Shown piece after piece: positions 954-58,041 of a DNA stretch of 64,000 nt; position 1 is the stretch's first letter, and each line of letters opens with the position of its first letter. The notes beneath the pieces are model-generated. The model ran no database searches. It saw only the letters and a list, made by a program, of their open reading frames with translations, and was not told the DNA's origin. The position numbers and the translations under genes are program-made. Source of the stretch: Callorhinchus milii (Eukaryota); assembly GCF_018977255.1 (NCBI RefSeq), contig NW_024704742.1, positions 136,216,001 through 136,280,000 of the forward strand. The letters are read 5' to 3'.

Positions 954-1022
954 ACATCAAATGCAAGTGATTATAATTCTATACTAAAATAGCTTTGTTT
1001 TTCTCTGCTTCTGTTTCTAAAG

Positions 1023-2263
1023 GTTGCAAAATCAAAGCACTGAGGGCCAAAACCAACACATACATCAAGACGCCTGTGCGCGGTGAGGAGCCTGTGTTTG
1101 TGGTTACAGGGAGGAAGGAGGACGTGGCTATGGCCAAGAGGGAGATCATCTCAGCAGCCGAACACTTCTCCATGATCCGAGCATCTCGCAACAAGAGCGG
1201 GGCATTGCCTGGGGCCACGACTGGCTTAGCCGGCCTTGCCCTGCCCGGGGCGCCCAGCCTGCCAGGCCAGACCACCATCCAGGTGCGTGTTCCCTACCGT
1301 GTAGTGGGGCTGGTGGTGGGTCCCAAAGGAGCCACCATCAAACGCATCCAGCAGCAGACGCACACCTACATCGTCACCCCCAGCCGCGACAAGGAGCCCG
1401 TATTCGAGGTGACTGGCATGCCCGAAAACGTGGACCGGGCCCGGGAGGAGATCGAGGCTCACATCGCCGTGCGCACCGGCAACTACATCGAGGTCAACGA
1501 GGAGAACGACTTCCACTCCAATGGCACGGACGTGAGCTTCGACAGCGTGGGGCTGGAGGCCGCCTGGGCCGAGATGAATGCTAACGGCCCGGCCCGTAAC
1601 CGCCTCCTCTCGAGCTACAGGAACGACAGCTCCAGCTCTTTGGGCAGCGGCTCCACCGACTCGTACCTCGCCAACCGCATGGCGGACTTCAGCCCCACCA
1701 GCCCATTCAGCGCCACCGGATTCTGGTTTGGGGAGTCGGTGCCCACCGTCAGCTCGGAGGATCTGCCCTTCGACCCTAGCCCTCTCTCCACCGCGCCCCC
1801 GCAGCCTGTCATTTGGTGCCCCTTCGAGCAGGCCGGCTTCTCCAGCGAGCCTGCAGTGTCCGGGGGGTCTGTGGCCCGGGACAGCCAGCCCACCACCCCG
1901 CGCCTCTCGCCCACCTTCCTGGAGAGCGTAGAGCAGCTGCCACTGGCCCACAGGCCATGCAGTGACCCGCTCCGCCTCTCCGGCTACATCTCCGGCTTCT
2001 CCAACGGCAACAGCTACTCCTCCTCGTCCGACAGCAGCCACAGCGCCTCAGGCTCTCCCACAGACTCGTCAGGCTCCGGGCACGGCCCGCGGGGCAAGCG
2101 GGACTGTATGGTCTGCTTCGAGAGCGAGGTGATCGCGGCCCTGGTGCCCTGCGGCCACAACCGCTTCTGTATGGAGTGTGCCAACCGCATCTGTGACGAG
2201 GAGCAGCCAAAGTGTCCCATGTGCAATACCCTGGTCACTCAAGCCATTCGCATCTACTGCTAG
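1023..2263 (+). CDS. MEX3C: MEX3C RNA-binding E3 ubiquitin ligase, last coding exon (rest of KH1, KH2, linker, C-terminal RING)
   Basis: Acceptor tttctaaAG at 1021-1022 (phase 1). [24 protein letters not shown] (KH1), [14 protein letters not shown] (KH2 GxxG), linker [17 protein letters not shown] and TTPRLSPTF as in MEX3C, RING CMVC..CGH..C..C..CPMC; stop TAG 2261-2263; tail-to-tail synteny with SMAD4. Upstream exon is outside the window. Confidence 0.95.
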
Positions 2264-19771: not shown

Positions 19772-19885
19772 AGTAGTGGCCAGTGTGATGTATAGCCGTG
19801 TGGTGTTGAAGATGCCCATTCTGGTGGTGGGGCAGGTTTGGGGTGTATGGTGCTGTTCTGCTTGCTGTCCAAGTTGTAGAGCTGC
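19772..19885 (-). CDS. SMAD4: SMAD4 coding exon 7 (linker/SAD)
   Basis: [37 protein letters not shown]; ttaacAG / GTaagt; 114 nt. Confidence 0.95.
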
Positions 19886-23320: not shown

Positions 23321-23770
23321 TAATAATCCTTAATTTGTATAGCACCTTATCGCGTCTTCGAGACGTCTCAAAGCCCTTCACAGAATATATTGTAAAGTGA
23401 ATTGACTGAATACCCTCCACCCCCTCCTGATCCCAACCCCAGCCTAGGTACAGATCCCTGACTGTCCAGCGCCTTGGGACGTCCTTCTGCCATGAAAGGT
23501 GTTATACAAATGTTATTTGGTATTGTGGTATTTTGTGGGTGAAACGTGGCACAAATTATGCACAGTAGTGCCCCAAAAACAGTCGTGGATTGAATTTTTT
23601 TTAAAAAAGGGATTATTACTCCTGGAAAAGCGATCCTCCAAACTGGGTTCCTACTTACTGCTAAGTAAACACAGGCGTGTGGTGTGGAGAAAGGAAACTT
23701 GTCTAATATTTCACCCTGATCGGTAATTGAACCCAGTTCCTCTCACTTGCGAGGCGAGTGCTCTAACCAA
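23321..23770 (-). mobile_element. Same SINE family, interrupted by an L2 3' tail (+, ~23412-23520)
   Basis: SINE tail and body are split around CCCTCCTGATCCCAACCCCAGC..GAAAGGTGTTATACAAATG. Confidence 0.75.
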
Positions 23771-25458
23771 TACCCTACACAAATAATCTCACAGGTTAAG
23801 ACTAGATGGAATTTCAACCCCACTACACTTCTCACCTTTTTGTTCCAGGTATAAAGGAACTAATTATGTCTGATATCTGGATTTGCCACCTTTTAGTAAC
23901 TCATTTGTCAGTGTGAGAAAGGTCTACTTTGCAGTGACAATTCTCCTCCCACTCCGTCTCAATACACTGTTATTTATTCACTTGTATCGGCTTTAAAATC
24001 ACTACCATGTAAAAGCAATATTCAGTGTAGGCAGAAACGGCAACAGATTTCTGTCTAGCAGGCAGGCCGGGTCTCCTTGGACCTGAATTGGCTCCAGTGA
24101 CATGCTTGGCTACAGAATCTCAGAATCGAGCCCATCCTCTGTGACGGTCTCTAGTTTGGTTCCCGAGCCAGGCAGGTCCGCAGTATTCCAGTGCATTGCT
24201 GATAACAGTCCTGGCTCGCCGACAGGACTCGGTAAGACAGACTGCTCACTAGGGGAAGTGAGTCGTCCCACACAGCTCCTGTTAACCCTGCAAGCCAAAG
24301 CCCTAAAGGGTGTGGATAGCCAAACATTGTCTCAATAAGGAAACAGCTTACCTCTGCAGAGATTGTCAGGAGATGCATTATCTGTGGTTTGCCCGGCAAC
24401 CCCACCATCATAGTCACTTAGCCAGATAACTGCTGATAAACACGAGACGTCACCCTTCCATGTTGAAATACAACAGCCAGGTCAGACACCAGCTTGCCCT
24501 TAGTAGCAGGTTACAATGCAGCAGTTCTATGCTCTAACTGCTTTCCCCCATTGTAATAGGAACAGAAATCTTTCCCAATGCAGGTGTCTATCGCACCATT
24601 GAAACCTGAGCAAACTTATAGGGACTGAAAATTCCTTCCAATCCAAAGAAACTGTACAATCAGTCTTGAGATATTAAGTGCAAAGTGAGCAATATCGCTG
24701 GTAAATTTGGGGCAGGGAAGGGACAGAAAGGGTGGGAGAGAGAAGAGAATGAGAGTTATGTCCAGGGCATGCTTCTTACAAACCTTTGCCTAGCTGAGAA
24801 CGGTAAAAACTGTTGGGTTCACAGGTATGATCACTCCCTCAAGGTTGGGAGATTCACAAGTATTCTTAGCACACAAACCAATAACCTCCTCTCTTCTCAC
24901 TTGTTAGTTCGCCTTTTTGTAATAATATAAGTTCCATTTTGTGGCTGACAGCTCCTTAGTCTAGGAGGAACCGCAGTGAGAAGATTTGGTCCTGAATGTC
25001 ATATCTCAGTTACTAGCAGCAGCTACATTCTGTTGAATATGTCTATCACCAGTAAAATAAAGACAGCAGGTAGGCAGGAAAGTCTTTTGAATGCAAGATC
25101 GATGTGAGACAAAACGCTGTTTAAGTTTAACACATTCCCTATCAGTACTATGACAGAATGCAGGGTGAGGGGGTGCTGAATAGTTCATCTCTGACATATT
25201 TGCGAACAGCAGTATATAAGGACTTCAAAGTGTAGTTACGCATTAACAAACAGAAAAAAAAATTCAAAAAAAACCCCTTTTGGGTTTTTTTTTGTGAAAC
25301 AAAAGCCGTTTGGGGTTTCTGTAGTAAATGTACTCAAGAGATGTTAAGCCATAATGCAGTGGGTCCCGACAAGCCACCCTTCCCAGAAAAAACATTAGCA
25401 ACACACACACGCACACAGAAGATAAAAATAGTCTCTTGGTTGCCCGCAGTTTATTTGT

Positions 25459-25964
25459 TCAGTTGTGTTTGGGTTTTTTGAAGGGCCTCCTCTCACTCCA
25501 GCAGAGTTCTGATTCAGAAGAGGCATTTGAGGGGCCGGGAGCGATCAGCTCTTCTTCGACCCACGTGGCTCCGTGCGACATCTCTGTGTTCGTAGGCTGC
25601 TGGCTAGCTCGCAGGTGTGCAAGGAGATCCTGCAGGGTTTGTCCTATTAGTTCCAGGGGGCCGCGGAGAGAGTCAATGGAGCCGCAGATGCTCTCCACGT
25701 GATCGTTCATGTCCTGGCGTAGCCCATAGATCCCCTCTTGCATCCTATGGAAACCATCAATCAACATTGCATTGTGGCACTCCGCCATTTTATATAGAGT
25801 ATCTTCAGGGACCCAAGTCAAAGGCCGGCGTCTACTTGTCCCGTTACCTGAATCCGCCCCCGGAGAATCTGGATGAATGATCTCCTGGGGTTCATCATAC
25901 TCATCATCTTCATCTTCATCTTCGTCTTCTTCAATGGTCACAAGGTTCGATGACGCCATGGTAT
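25459..25964 (-). CDS. Candidate alternative terminal exon of SMAD4 or nested gene: 166-aa ORF (acidic N-terminus, helical middle, basic C-terminus)
   Basis: Acceptor cctgtttttctcgcAG (25966-25965), then AT-ACC-ATG-G (strong Kozak); open to TGA 25461-25459; AATAAA 25455-25450 and a GU-rich element downstream. Confidence 0.55.
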
Positions 25965-28900
25965 CTGCGAGAAAAACAGGCGAAGGGGGAGTCTCAGCAA
26001 AAATCTACTACCCAGGAGGACAAGCACATTCACACGAAAGGATTCAAAGACGGGAAACACAAGCTAAGAGGGCCATGGCTCAGCTCATCTCAAAGGAACG
26101 ACACCCCATCCCCACAGCGATGACCTAAAGATACAGATACAACGGAGGTCACTTTCCTTCCCTAAATCTAATCCTGGCAAAATACCTCCCTCTATTCTAC
26201 AGGAAAAATTGGTCAAGTTGCTGGAAATTAATATAATTCAGGGTTTGTTGGGTTATTAGATGTATTGAAGGAATCTTTTGGAAAATTGGACTTATGCCTA
26301 TAACAGCAACCATGTTACCTTTATAACTCAGTTTAGATTTCATTCTCACTTTGTTGGGCAGATGCCATTAAGACCTCCAGTCTGTATGATGCACCTCCTT
26401 TTATCATAAAGAAGAGCATCCCTAAACTGCATCTTGCCCTGAATTCAGACACTCCTCTCCTAACCCTTTCAAACCTGCTCACTTTCATCCTATCCCTTCC
26501 CCAATGTAACCTTCATGATACCCCATATATGCCGTATGTATCCTTCACGATATGCCAGGGCAACCTTATTGCCATTATGTCCATCCTTTCTAAAGGTATG
26601 GAAGTTGGGATCCACTCTCAAACGATCCAAAAGCGTGGGGCTAGTCCATGGCTTAGCCACAGTGATCTTCTTTCCAGTGGGACGAATCCTCTGTAACTCG
26701 GCTCTTTGGTGATTGCTTTCCATGCCATTCAACATCTGCGTCTCCTTTGATATGGTATGGCACTGCGTATCTGTAAACTTCTTGAGGTCTTCAATGCACA
26801 CTCTATGCCTATAGTGGATGGGTCTACCTGGTTTCCTTTTTCACCAGCTGTAGGTTCCCCAAACTCTCTCCCAATCTGTTACTTCTCCACATCGATGCCT
26901 TGCTCCATTCATGTAATACGTTCTTCGGCTGATGATTCCATTGTACGTTCATCAATTTTTTCCTTGGCACAGAACCTCCATTCTTCCCAGTGTAGTGACT
27001 GAATCGCTTTGCTTTGATCGCATCTGTGCCCTTTGATGGGGTAAACAGGTTATTTACTTCAGATGTGGTAATGTCTCTTACCTCCCACCTATAATGGTTC
27101 TATTCTTCAGCATCTATCAACACTCTACTTCCTCTGTTAAATTGGTATAGCTCCTCCATTCAGTTAGGTCTATTTCATACCAAGTTCATATTTTACTAAC
27201 AATTTTTCTATAAATTACATAATAATCCTTTACTACACCTCACACATGCAAAACCAGACGAGTTATCCAACAACAACAAATTACATCTGTATATTGCCTT
27301 TCACACCAGGAGAATGTCCCAAGGTGCGGGACAGTTAGGGATTCAAAATAAGTAATGCTTGTTTTATTTCTCTCCAACTTTTCTTGTTTTTCCCCTTTAA
27401 ATTGATTCTATAATAGATAATGCTCCTCTGAACTTTCTTCATTTGGTCCTAAATTCCAAGTTTTCCACGCTATAGCCAGTGGTGGTCAACCCATTGTCCC
27501 CAGGCTCAAAGTGGGCTATGGGTGTCAAGAAATAGCCCTCCAAACATTCACACTAGTCCAGGTAAGTTTATGCTAAATCATTATTTGGCTTCCAGGCGCT
27601 ACTGTGGAAACACTACTTCATTGAGCGAGTAGTAAACTCATAGAATAGGCCCCCTGGGGAGACAGTGGAAGCAGAAAATGTCATTTGTTTCAAGAACAAA
27701 TTAGATAGATTTCTGCGAGAAAAAAATCTCAGGATACAGTCGGGCAACTGACAGGATCGTGGAAAGCGAAATAGACGGACCTTGGTCTTCTTTCGCCTAG
27801 CAAATCCTTATGTACTGATTAGTGATATTTTATGGTGTGGCCATATATCAAGAAATATTTATTTGGGTGGTGACCATATCTGTGGGGAGTGTAGGGAGGT
27901 GCTACTGTTTTCTCCTGTCTGAGCAGTTCCACCTTGTGTTGATGCAGATGATTGATTGAGTGGGGATACCCACATCTTCTTGGTGGCATTTGCCAGATGT
28001 TCCTGTGCCACAAACTAGGTGAGATGAAACTGAAGCGCTGATAATGTTAAAGTCCGATAATGTTGTTGTACAAGGGAGTCACAAGAAATGGAAGTCGAGA
28101 GGAATTTTCTCAGCTGTTTGGAACTATTCCATGTAAGGGGTATTCCACCTAACAGCAATCTCCTCCCAATTTTTTGACAGCCATTGAATCTCTGACAATC
28201 ACCCATTAATTCAAAGCTGACCACCACCGCCACCTTTCAATCAATGCAGATTGGGAAGGCATGAAAAGGACCACCTTAGCACCACATTCAATTGCTGCGA
28301 TTTGGTTTTGATGAAGTTTATTCAGTGTGGAAGCAATTGGTAGCCATCAGTTTCAGGATTAGATCAACATTTCTGGATATGTAAGAGAATTTTTTTGTTA
28401 GTAATCTGCACTTAAGTCAGAAAAATAATTCAGTGCACTATACTTACAAGTAATTGTGGACTTAAATAAAACAAAATATGTATTTTGTCAAACAGGGGCT
28501 GAAGATGAAATTCAATATTTATTAGCTAGTAAAAGTCAATAATCTGTAGAAACTAAAAGTGCACACACTATCGCTATAATATTGTATGTACAATTGTCTA
28601 ATGGTTCCATGTTCTTAGCATTGATGGGTGAAATGTTTGTGGTGTGCAGTAGAGTCTTGTTGTCTCCTGGTCCACTAGAGACACTCACACTGCACTGGCT
28701 ATTATTCGAGCAGATCAAGCGTAACTTGCAAGTAGTGTAAAGCTGTCCTTTATTCAATGCTCAAGAGTAATTTCTATTTGCTTACAATAGCCTGCATAAC
28801 AAAATTCCACATGTTCTTAGCCCTAATACCATTGACTTGATATTTAAGATCATCCAGAATTTTGGAGATTTCTTCAATTGTGTCTTTATCTAAAATCCAT

Positions 28901-32993: not shown

Positions 32994-33113
32994 TGCGATG
33001 GTAGTTTGCCGGCTGCGCTGGAAAGCCATTCTGCTGTGCTGCTTGCTGAGGGCCGGTAGCAATCTGTATTAGTCCTTCGGTGTGGTTCACAGGTAACATG
33101 CTGCTGGGCTGAC
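32994..33113 (-). CDS. SMAD4: SMAD4 coding exon 6 (linker)
   Basis: [39 protein letters not shown]; tccccAG / GTaagg; 120 nt, phase 1-1. Confidence 0.93.
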
Positions 33114-35518: not shown

Positions 35519-35722
35519 TGGTGGTGGCAACGGGAAGGCTGGGGAAATTGGGGATGCTGAGGCTGCTGGTATCTGGTGTTAGCATGGCCGGTCCACTGTA
35601 GGTTTCTGCTACCGGCCTGGCGCTAGGCGGATGCTGGATTGTCTGCAACGAGTGTCCTTCAGTGCTCAACAGAGATTGCTGTCCCTCAACTTGTACATAT
35701 TCATTTGCAAATTCATCTTTTA
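35519..35722 (-). CDS. SMAD4: SMAD4 coding exon 5 (linker)
   Basis: (V)[67 protein letters not shown]; cttttAG / GTaagt; 204 nt. Confidence 0.9.
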
Positions 35723-37212: not shown

Positions 37213-37242
37213 CTGAACTCTGCAGCGTCAATCCTGAAAGAT
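37213..37242 (-). CDS. SMAD4: SMAD4 30-nt micro-exon carrying the nuclear export signal
   Basis: (D)LSGLTLQSS; caatgaAG / GTaaac; absent from the ORF track. Confidence 0.93.
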
Positions 37243-39060: not shown

Positions 39061-39414
<354 letters not shown>

Positions 39415-45297: not shown

Positions 45298-45630
<333 letters not shown>

Positions 45631-55877: not shown

Positions 55878-56140
55878 CTTCTGCCTTTCGCCTCCTGGCG
55901 GGCGCTGTACCACAAGTCCCTCCACCAACTCGAGCGCCAGGCTTCCCCCCGGGGCCCTAGGCCATCCCTCCTCCCACAGGTTTGTGCGTCTATTGTTTGT
56001 AATGGTTGCCGCCGCCGCCTCCTCCTTCCTTCCCTCCCTCCTCCTTCTCCTCCTCCTCCTCGGAGCCCCCGACGCCGCCGCCCTCTCTCTTCCTCTTCCT
56101 CTCTCTCTCTCTCTCTCCGACGCCGTTGCGCTATTTTTTT
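55878..56140 (-). other. SMAD4: Probable SMAD4 non-coding exon 1 (5' end approximate)
   Basis: Purine/GGC-rich leader ending in donor GCAGAAG/GTAAAG at 55878/55877 inside the CpG island. Confidence 0.6.
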
Positions 56141-56224
56141 TGTTAAAAGAGGATTAAAACATGGCGGAGGGTGCGGCGCATGCGCCCCAGGCCGACGTCG
56201 CCGAAATGCCTGAGAGCCGAGCGC

Positions 56225-56396
56225 GTTCGGCTGTCTCCGGCACAGGGTTCGGCTATTTCCGGCACGGGGTTCGGCTATTTCCGGCACAGGGTTCGGCTAT
56301 CTCCGGCACAGGGGTCAGCTATCTCCGGCACAGGGTTCGGCTATCTCCGGCACGGGGTTCGGCTATTTCCGGCACAGGGCTCGGCTATCTCCGGCA
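56225..56396. repeat. 22-bp tandem repeat, ~7.8 copies of GTTCGGCTATYTCCGGCACRGG
   Basis: Units start at 56225, 56247, 56269, 56291, 56313, 56335, 56357, 56379. Confidence 0.95.
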
Positions 56397-58041
56397 ACCG
56401 AGGGCCAGATCCCCAGGTTAAATGCATCTCCATCACTACACCCATGTCACCAATGGGAGAAAATAATAATCATAATAATAATAATAATAATTTACTGTTT
56501 GTGGGACCGCCGCGGGGCGCAACCGGCTGCCGCGTTTCACCCACCCGCGAAATATCCTTTTACACAAATAGAATTTTTTGGGGTTGTTGTTTGGGGTATA
56601 TTCCCAGCAGCGCTTTGAAAGATCTCTCAACGACGCGATAAGGGGCTTTTATCAAATTCAAGGATTATTATTATCTCCGAAGGACATTGCCCTACACAAG
56701 TTCATACTGTGGCACAATCCTACAATTCCCCCCCCACCCGCCCTCTTAATTATTTGTTTGAAAACTAGCCTCATCTTTACACAGAGGATAGTCAACAAAT
56801 TAGTTGCTCGGCTGGAACTCTTTGAGTAATAGCTCAAGGCTATTATTCTGGAATAATATATTCAAAAGCTCTCCATGGCTCAGCCCTCTCTTGTGATCTG
56901 GTCACTTTGGAACGAACAAACGCTCCCTGAAAATCATCTTTTTATGAGCTTGATGTAAAGTAAAACTCATGAAAGTTTTTATCTACTGCTGTACTACACG
57001 CGAAAAATCTAACTCTCAGAGCGCAAAACTGAAACGTGCATTTCAAAATATTTCATAAAATAAATGGTTTAAAAATCATTCCAGTAACTGCAAGTTTTCA
57101 TACCTAACGCAGGTTTGTAGGTAATATGAACAACTTTACTTTTTATTTCAGATTTCTAGCATTTTTTGCATTTTCTTTTATCTACTTTGCTCATAATCCG
57201 CCCCAATTAAGCCACATACCCTATAGTTTTTCTGAGCCTTTTCCTTTTCTCGTACATAGAAATGGAAGTTGAGCCAGTTCCAACATTAACATTAATCCAA
57301 TTAAATTAAAATTAACATTTTAATCCAATTTCATTTCTTTATTTCCATATCCCTTAATATTCTTACTTCCCAAGTCAATTTCTGGCTTTGCACAAGCACC
57401 TACTGTACTGGTACATAAACAATTCAATCCCATTAACAGAAGACAACTCCAATCTGCGCTGTAAATTACTATGATTTTATCTCACCATTTGTCATCTATA
57501 ACAACAATAAAAGTATATTTATAAAGTGCTTTTCATGTCGGGAGGACGTCCCAAGCACTGAACAGTCGGTGATCAGGACCCGACTGTGAGGGGAGCAGCG
57601 TTGGGATGAGGGTGGCTGAAGGCAAGGTCAAAAAGGAGGGTCTTGAGTCGTGCCTTGAAGGAGACAAGGGAGAGAGCAAGGCAACGGGTGGGGGCAGAGA
57701 GGATGAAGTCCGGCCGCCAATGGTAGGGCAGATCGCGGGGGAGACATGGAGCAGCCCGGAGCCTGCTGAATGAAGGGAGCGGACAGGTTGATAGGGCGTC
57801 AGTAGACCAGAGATGTAGGAGGGCGCAAAGCCGTGGAAGGCCTTGAAAGTGAGAACGAAGATTTTGAATTCTATCCTCTGAGGGATGGGGAGCCAGTGGA
57901 GCCGGGCGAGGATGAGGGTGATGGGATCATGGAGCCTGGTGTGGGAGAGGACATGAGCTGCGAAGTTCTGGATCATCTGCAGCTTGTGGAGAAGTGTAGG
58001 GGAGGCCGTCAAGGAGGGAGTTTCCGTAGTCGAGCCTTGAA

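Follow-up and report, generated by a model that had tools for sequence, protein, structure and literature searches.

Our analyses of a 64,000-nucleotide stretch of the Callorhinchus milii genome (the window; contig NW_024704742.1, positions 136,216,001 to 136,280,000 of the forward strand, numbered here from its first letter) indicate that the intron between exons 6 and 7 of SMAD4 almost certainly harbours a real, ancient and unannotated coding exon. This hidden exon occupies 25459..25964 on the minus strand, the strand of its host gene. On balance, we consider it probable that it represents an ancient alternative last exon of SMAD4 in cartilaginous fishes, giving a protein that keeps the MH1 domain and the nuclear export signal (NES), lacks the SAD and MH2 domains, and ends in a coiled-coil tail. 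The junction is presumably used in vivo, probably at a low level or in few tissues.

Anatomy and conservation of the hidden exon

The host gene was identified as C. milii SMAD4, on the minus strand, by TBLASTN mapping of its exons and visual inspection, and the exon map is fixed by the match of translated exons 2-8 to the first 311 amino acids (aa) of the RefSeq protein XP_007904971.1. Exon 6 (33113-32994) and exon 7 (19885-19772) are separated by an intron of 13,108 nt, which contains the hidden exon. A first-pass annotation, made from the letters of the window, had described a pyrimidine tract and acceptor, a 506-nt phase-1 frame, a TGA, an AATAAA and a downstream element, and all of these are present at the positions it gave. 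The hidden exon and its parts are as follows:

25965..25991, minus strand: polypyrimidine tract and CAG 3' splice acceptor, with the AG at 25966-25965, 5 nt before the ATG
25459..25964, minus strand: hidden coding exon up to its stop, 506 nt including the TGA, with a 166-aa open reading frame (ORF)
25891..25935, minus strand: acidic run, residues 9-23, inside the conserved N-terminal block
25600..25806, minus strand: predicted amphipathic helix, residues 52-120, 69 residues, coiled-coil-like
25491..25499, minus strand: donor-like site GGA/GTGAGA inside the exon (exon end 25497); splicing from it to exon 7 would make the exon an in-frame cassette of 468 nt
25462..25491, minus strand: basic C-terminal end, with F160, K161 and the terminal Asn conserved
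25450..25455, minus strand: AATAAA polyadenylation signal, 3 nt past the TGA
25400..25430, minus strand: U-rich and GU-rich tract resembling a downstream element (GU part 25417-25400), downstream of the AATAAA

Positions -24 to -4 of the acceptor hold 18 pyrimidines out of 21, compared with 15-18 out of 21 at the acceptors of SMAD4 exons 3-8. The ATG (25959, minus strand) stands in an ACC-ATG-G context and the TGA lies at 25461-25459; the basic C-terminal end resembles a nuclear localization signal. A further donor-like site is present in the exon after 25848 (CAG/GTAACG; 117 nt), and it too preserves the frame.

The length of the frame is by itself weak evidence and unremarkable: when intron 6 was simulated with a Markov model, 21 of 300 runs contained a stop-free frame of at least 168 codons. 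Unlike frame length, the combination of acceptor, long frame and AATAAA is not unremarkable. Among the 13 acceptor-like sites of the intron, that of the hidden exon is the only one followed by a phase-1 frame of at least 150 codons. Out of 9066 simulations, 62 produced an acceptor with an ORF of at least 150 codons regardless of phase and 30 did so in phase 1, whereas none added an AATAAA within 60 nt of the stop; the thresholds had been chosen after the locus had been seen.

The ORF is single-copy in the C. milii genome in both DNA and protein searches, and the 1 kb downstream of the exon is also unique; the many near-identical copies expected of a recent transposon passenger, an outcome against the exon that the first-pass annotation had foreseen, were not found. 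The retention of the frame in relatives, which that annotation had proposed to examine, was observed: the frame is intact and conserved in sharks. A search of proteins of 91-291 aa yielded relatives in 2 of 269 candidates, namely P0001, an unnamed protein of 161 aa with 59% identity over the full ORF (two one-residue variants of it exist), and the whale-shark protein XP_048448591.1 (P0002), with 63% identity over the full ORF. Identity reaches 77% at residues 1-30, 72-76% at 49-120, 15-20% at 121-140 and 58-65% at 141-166, and this patterning, high in the helix and low in the spacer, argues for selection on the protein. SMAD4 exons 5-7 show 71-82% identity to three elasmobranchs, and the helix block is thus conserved as highly as SMAD4's own linker exons. 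Met1 and Ala2 are invariant, with conservation beginning almost at the methionine, and the stop position and last residue are retained in all three sequences of the alignment. Chimaeras and sharks separated roughly 400 million years (My) ago.

No relative was found outside cartilaginous fishes, including by a profile search of 1.84 billion representatives, in which the three matches with E<=0.001 were P0001, P0006 and P0007. The last two were rejected as homologues, being repeat-rich and matched over only 22-37 positions with a generic coiled-coil likeness; P0006 is a trimeric autotransporter adhesin according to Pfam. Metagenome and viral contigs likewise gave no relative, and no paper on the exon emerged from a literature search that covered few subscription journals.

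The heptad-like helix proposed in the first-pass annotation is supported by structure prediction. AlphaFold2, given a five-row alignment, returned a single helix at residues 52-120 with a predicted local distance difference test score (pLDDT) of 90-98 between low-confidence flanks, in a model with an overall mean pLDDT of 70 and a predicted template modelling score of 0.34. Its hydrophobic residues (70, 73, 77, 80, 84, 88, 91, 95, 98, 102, 105, 109, 112 and 116) follow a spacing of 3-4 with one stutter. Such a helix is expected to pair with a partner, so a coiled coil is its likely state, and it would most likely form by self-association. Foldseek gave no match for the tail model in the PDB, and the best VIA-align results (Z 6.2) were unrelated generic long helices. 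A sequence search of the PDB retrieved nothing beyond SMAD MH1 entries and a single SMAD4 peptide, all of them matched by those columns of the alignment that belong to SMAD4. CCDC184 / DUF4677 obtained an Atlas feature score of 0.81, a level reached by shuffled proteins one third of the time and not repeated with P0001; Atlas scores, at 0.79-0.81 overall, serve as leads only, and Pfam found no CCDC184 / DUF4677 match in the hidden-exon ORF.

Proposed joining to SMAD4 and competing explanations

The SMAD4 exons that would contribute to a fused product, together with the competing exon 7, are the following:

45322..45561, minus strand: coding part of exon 2, with the ATG at 45561; MH1 begins here
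39105..39279, minus strand: exon 3, remainder of MH1; donor in phase 1
37213..37242, minus strand: exon 4, 30 nt; donor in phase 1; leucine-rich NES region where exons 3 and 4 meet
35519..35722, minus strand: exon 5, linker; donor in phase 1
32994..33113, minus strand: exon 6, linker; donor GCA/GTAAGG, phase 1; proposed upstream splice partner
19772..19885, minus strand: exon 7, competing canonical acceptor, phase 1; SAD and MH2 in and beyond this exon

The NES is placed at the exon 3/4 boundary following the relevant passage of PMC6218760, where exon numbering differs, and the SMAD4 peptide 5uwu_D aligns at the exon 4 region in the PDB sequence search. Exon 5 of C. milii (35722, minus strand) starts about 7 codons later than its elasmobranch counterpart, hence a RefSeq SMAD4 of 545 aa in C. 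milii versus 552-554 aa in sharks and rays; Ensembl-type C. milii models differ at this exon 5 boundary (35722).

Computed translation of exons 2-6 followed by the hidden exon gives 424 aa with one terminal stop. This confirms that a splice from the phase-1 donor of exon 6 would be in frame and give the N-T-M junction, as had been claimed from the first reading. In this predicted product, MH1 and the NES (exons 2-4) are kept and MH2 and SAD, encoded past exon 6, are missing; it would count as a SMAD4 isoform, though not as a working co-SMAD. The fit of phase that was claimed in its favour holds for exon 6 but is shared by exons 3, 4 and 5, whose donors likewise stand in phase 1, and so points to none of the four in particular.

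Two shark gene models join the exon to SMAD4. The whale-shark RefSeq protein XP_048448591.1 (Rhincodon typus LOC109911226) begins with 125 residues corresponding to SMAD4 exons 4-6 and then passes through N-T-M into the exon. The bamboo-shark GenBank protein GCC31183.1 (Chiloscyllium punctatum) carries MH1, the same N-T-M junction and most of the exon, and continues from exon 8 onward with MH2. The shared junction implies that, in carpet sharks, the AG lies at the same -5 position and in the SMAD4 frame. Among the 103 proteins collected, the tail is carried by P0001-P0005 only, and MH1 was detected in P0005. A weak IRF-3 Pfam match falls on the MH2 of a tail-carrying shark model; IAD and MH2 are related folds.

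The fusion of MH1 to the new tail put forward in the first-pass annotation is thus partly supported, by the conserved frame and by the junction common to two models, both of them predicted and both from carpet sharks. Several observations weigh against it as the product of the exon. The two models are automatic predictions ('uncharacterized' and 'hypothetical') from a single shark order, and count as one carpet-shark observation, not two. XP_048448591.1 is a partial model that begins with SMAD4 exon 4 and comes from a contig of 25 kb, so the predictor may have had no choice but to stop in the hidden exon; in GCC31183.1 the exon is an internal one and exon 7 is left out. No fused isoform appeared among 74 matches in a search of 353-1124-aa proteins with linker plus tail as query, nor among 1624 longer candidates in a weak search, and the tail is absent from the 31 listed members (of 37) of nine SMAD4 clusters, which represent 19 cartilaginous fishes. 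These clusters do contain other truncated last-exon isoforms and no fused one, so any fusion that is made would probably be rare or confined to certain tissues. The sharing of phase 1 by four donors (exons 3-6) also counts here, as does the start of the ORF, discussed below. As a separate observation, P0090, P0091, P0096, P0098 and P0012 are RefSeq C-terminally truncated SMAD4 isoforms of sharks and rays that end within MH2 and are unrelated to the hidden exon.

A nested gene on the same strand could instead encode, from its own ATG, a stand-alone 166-aa nuclear protein of acidic, coiled-coil and basic parts, in which case the acceptor would be joined to a first exon without coding sequence, supplied by a promoter within the intron or by the 5' leader of SMAD4, and the match with the SMAD4 reading frame would be incidental. 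We hold this to be rather unlikely, but it agrees with the invariant Met-Ala in the Kozak context ACC-ATG-G, with conservation from near that methionine, with three unnamed proteins (P0001, P0003 and P0004) called from it on contigs of 2.1-4.4 kb, and with the lack of fused isoforms in the set of annotated SMAD4 proteins that was searched. This last point favours it little, because no named stand-alone protein occurs among the 269 candidates of 91-291 aa either. Moreover, the sequence directly upstream of the exon has a CpG observed/expected ratio of 0.33-0.47 (vs 0.97 near 56-57 kb), with no CpG-rich promoter-like stretch, the exon is joined to SMAD4 coding exons in both shark models, and a strong acceptor followed by an AATAAA in a same-strand intron would meet the host donors on every transcript.

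Use of the donor after 25497 (GGA/GTGAGA) would make the exon a symmetric cassette of 468 nt that adds 156 aa, and with them a coiled coil, to the linker of an otherwise full-length SMAD4 of ~700 aa with MH2 kept. Exons 2-6, the cassette and exons 7-8 indeed translate without a stop, and GCC31183.1 exits the exon at the equivalent place; this explanation is nevertheless improbable, since in P0001, P0003 and P0004 the corresponding residue is Asn, whose codons, as judged from the protein, supply no GT for a donor there, the basic tail, stop and AATAAA beyond the donor are kept, and such a long isoform is missing from the 353-1124-aa search. We find it very improbable that the exon serves mainly to end transcripts within the intron in a regulated manner, and thereby to lower full-length SMAD4, the truncated protein being a by-product: the AATAAA right behind the stop, the GU tract and the removal of SAD and MH2 by any use of the exon would suit such a switch, but conservation follows the structure of the protein, identity falling from 72-76% in the helix to 15-20% in the spacer (residues 121-140). 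Finally, a functionless frame, be it a chance one or a recent or inactive transposon passenger, would be compatible with the 21 of 300 simulations that gave a frame of such length and with the absence of annotation in C. milii. It is extremely improbable and largely refuted by conservation; the ORF is single-copy, intact and 59-63% identical in sharks, with a unique 1-kb downstream flank.

Predicted consequences and known parallels

If the hidden exon serves as an alternative last exon of SMAD4, the spliceosome would take the acceptor at 25965 instead of that of exon 7 and the transcript would be cleaved after the AATAAA, giving the 424-aa protein. Its parts would follow in the order MH1 (DNA binding), NES, part of the linker, acidic block, 69-residue coiled-coil-type helix and basic tail. 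As discussed in PMC11063908, MH2 mediates trimer formation and autoinhibits MH1, the SAD (human residues 275-322) binds p300, and trimeric SMAD complexes are by themselves poor DNA binders, since motifs seldom occur in clusters. Without MH2, the product would escape MH1-MH2 autoinhibition and would not join R-SMAD trimers, and without SAD it would not recruit p300 by that route. Self-association of the helix would make MH1 multivalent, and such a multivalent MH1 might occupy SMAD-binding elements independently of ligand, in competition with signal-activated complexes; in addition, every use of the hidden exon would cost one full-length SMAD4 message. We propose this mechanism, from autoinhibition escape to ligand-independent competition, only tentatively, and give it less than even chances. 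The acidic block could instead turn the product into an activator. A solo 166-aa product might also arise from the retained ATG, as with PGBD3, and fused and solo products can coexist.

The closest parallel is CSB-PGBD3, the 'exon trap' of ERCC6 intron 5, as described in PMC2268245. There, too, a same-strand intronic ORF lies in frame with a host donor and has a poly(A) site past its stop, the acceptor is 7 nt from the methionine (5 nt in the hidden exon), the C-terminal functional domain of the host is replaced, and both fused and solo products are possible. By contrast, that case involves a recognisable piggyBac transposase with terminal repeats and an age of ~43 My, and its fusion was shown by reverse transcription PCR and western blot (PMC2268245), whereas the hidden exon is an orphan of no detectable transposon origin, common to chimaeras and sharks, with a fusion known from gene models alone. 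The human SMAD4 splice variants covered by PMC6218760 likewise involve alternative splicing around phase-1 linker exons; they are, however, linker-exon deletions or internal rearrangements, and none of those described there gains a foreign conserved last exon. In Xenopus dm-W, according to PMC9250109, a DNA-binding domain acquired a new last exon that raises DNA binding and transrepression, much as in our working model, and by this analogy the hidden-exon product may resemble it in function. Yet dm-W is a separate duplicated gene of 17-18 My with a hAT-derived exon (PMC9250109), whereas the hidden exon would belong to an isoform of an intact gene.

TGF-beta and BMP signalling converge on SMAD4 as their common node, and a SMAD4 lesion that removes MH2 normally abolishes function. 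A more far-reaching reading, which we regard as rather doubtful, is that a second SMAD4 product has persisted in cartilaginous fishes for ~400 My, with a constitutive coiled coil in place of signal-dependent MH2 trimerisation. It would be a ligand-independent multivalent MH1 factor, turned on when the intron is spliced and polyadenylated at the hidden exon. A naturally occurring isoform without MH2 but with a conserved replacement tail would demonstrate that MH1 can be converted to signal-independent action, and would provide a testable lineage-specific brake on BMP/TGF-beta output in these fishes. Were the stand-alone protein the actual product, the locus would still hold an ancient, largely unannotated gene nested in SMAD4.

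Origin of the exon and genomic surroundings

The first-pass annotation had suggested that the tail derives from the Myb/SANT partner proteins of Harbinger transposons, an origin for which we found no support. Pfam searches of the ORF and of three flanking frames gave no family at E<=5, and no Myb/SANT (trihelix) domain; no similarity to a transposon protein was detected among the 1.84 billion representatives. When 3021 ORFs from 25 loci around the genome's 9 Myb_DNA-bind_5 matches (with flanks of 10-60 kb, mainly on the downstream side, for the 9 Myb loci) were compared with the hidden exon, the best E was 2.8; the tails of such proteins diverge fast. The Harbinger-type transposase DDE_Tnp_4 has 11 matches in the genome in a lower-bound search, none within 24 Mb of the window, and the structure model, a single long helix, is unlike a Myb/SANT domain. 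NAIF1 and MSANTD1-4, derived from Harbinger Myb-like proteins, represent an old vertebrate domestication present in cartilaginous fish (PMC9392472); these carry the Myb/SANT domain, whereas the hidden exon lacks one and shows no detected similarity to them. The main text of PMC9392472 does not contain 'SMAD', and no literature linking SMAD4 with a domesticated Harbinger was found. Membership in the transposase-capture class (bioRxiv 10.1101/2020.05.07.082677) is not established, as no transposon origin was detected. The traces of so ancient an origin may have been lost, and 'orphan' is therefore the best term for the exon.

A candidate pair of terminal inverted repeats bracketing the exon (I2, 23454-23531 / 27265-27342) was rejected: the fragment that forms one arm has 1771 candidates in the genome, and the other arm falls within a dispersed repeat. 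The repeats at ~27600-27820 and 24060-24310, which flank the exon at some distance, are high-copy fragments, with ~80% identity to many genomic places, and unrelated to the exon; several SINE-like copies (resembling short interspersed elements) occur elsewhere in the same SMAD4 intron. Two similar Myb/SANT (PF13873) exons, L008 and L009, lie on opposite strands ~30 kb apart (G000:C1:135.78-135.81 Mb), 410-440 kb past the SMAD4 3' end, and a third relative, L007, is found at C1:95.28 Mb. Neither the L008 nor the L009 exon shows similarity to the hidden exon; L007-L009 possibly form a small Harbinger-derived gene family.

Within the window, a CpG-rich stretch at ~56000-56400 (minus strand; observed/expected 0.97 at 56001-57000), with tandem ~20-nt units and a GA/GGC-rich tract, is probably the SMAD4 promoter and first exon. 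At the other end of the gene, an open frame of 428 codons with KH-domain-like sequence (977-2260, plus strand) converges on the SMAD4 3' end, and we take it to be a MEX3-type gene. This identification fits with the description of MEX3C as a conserved neighbour of SMAD4 in PMC5979292.

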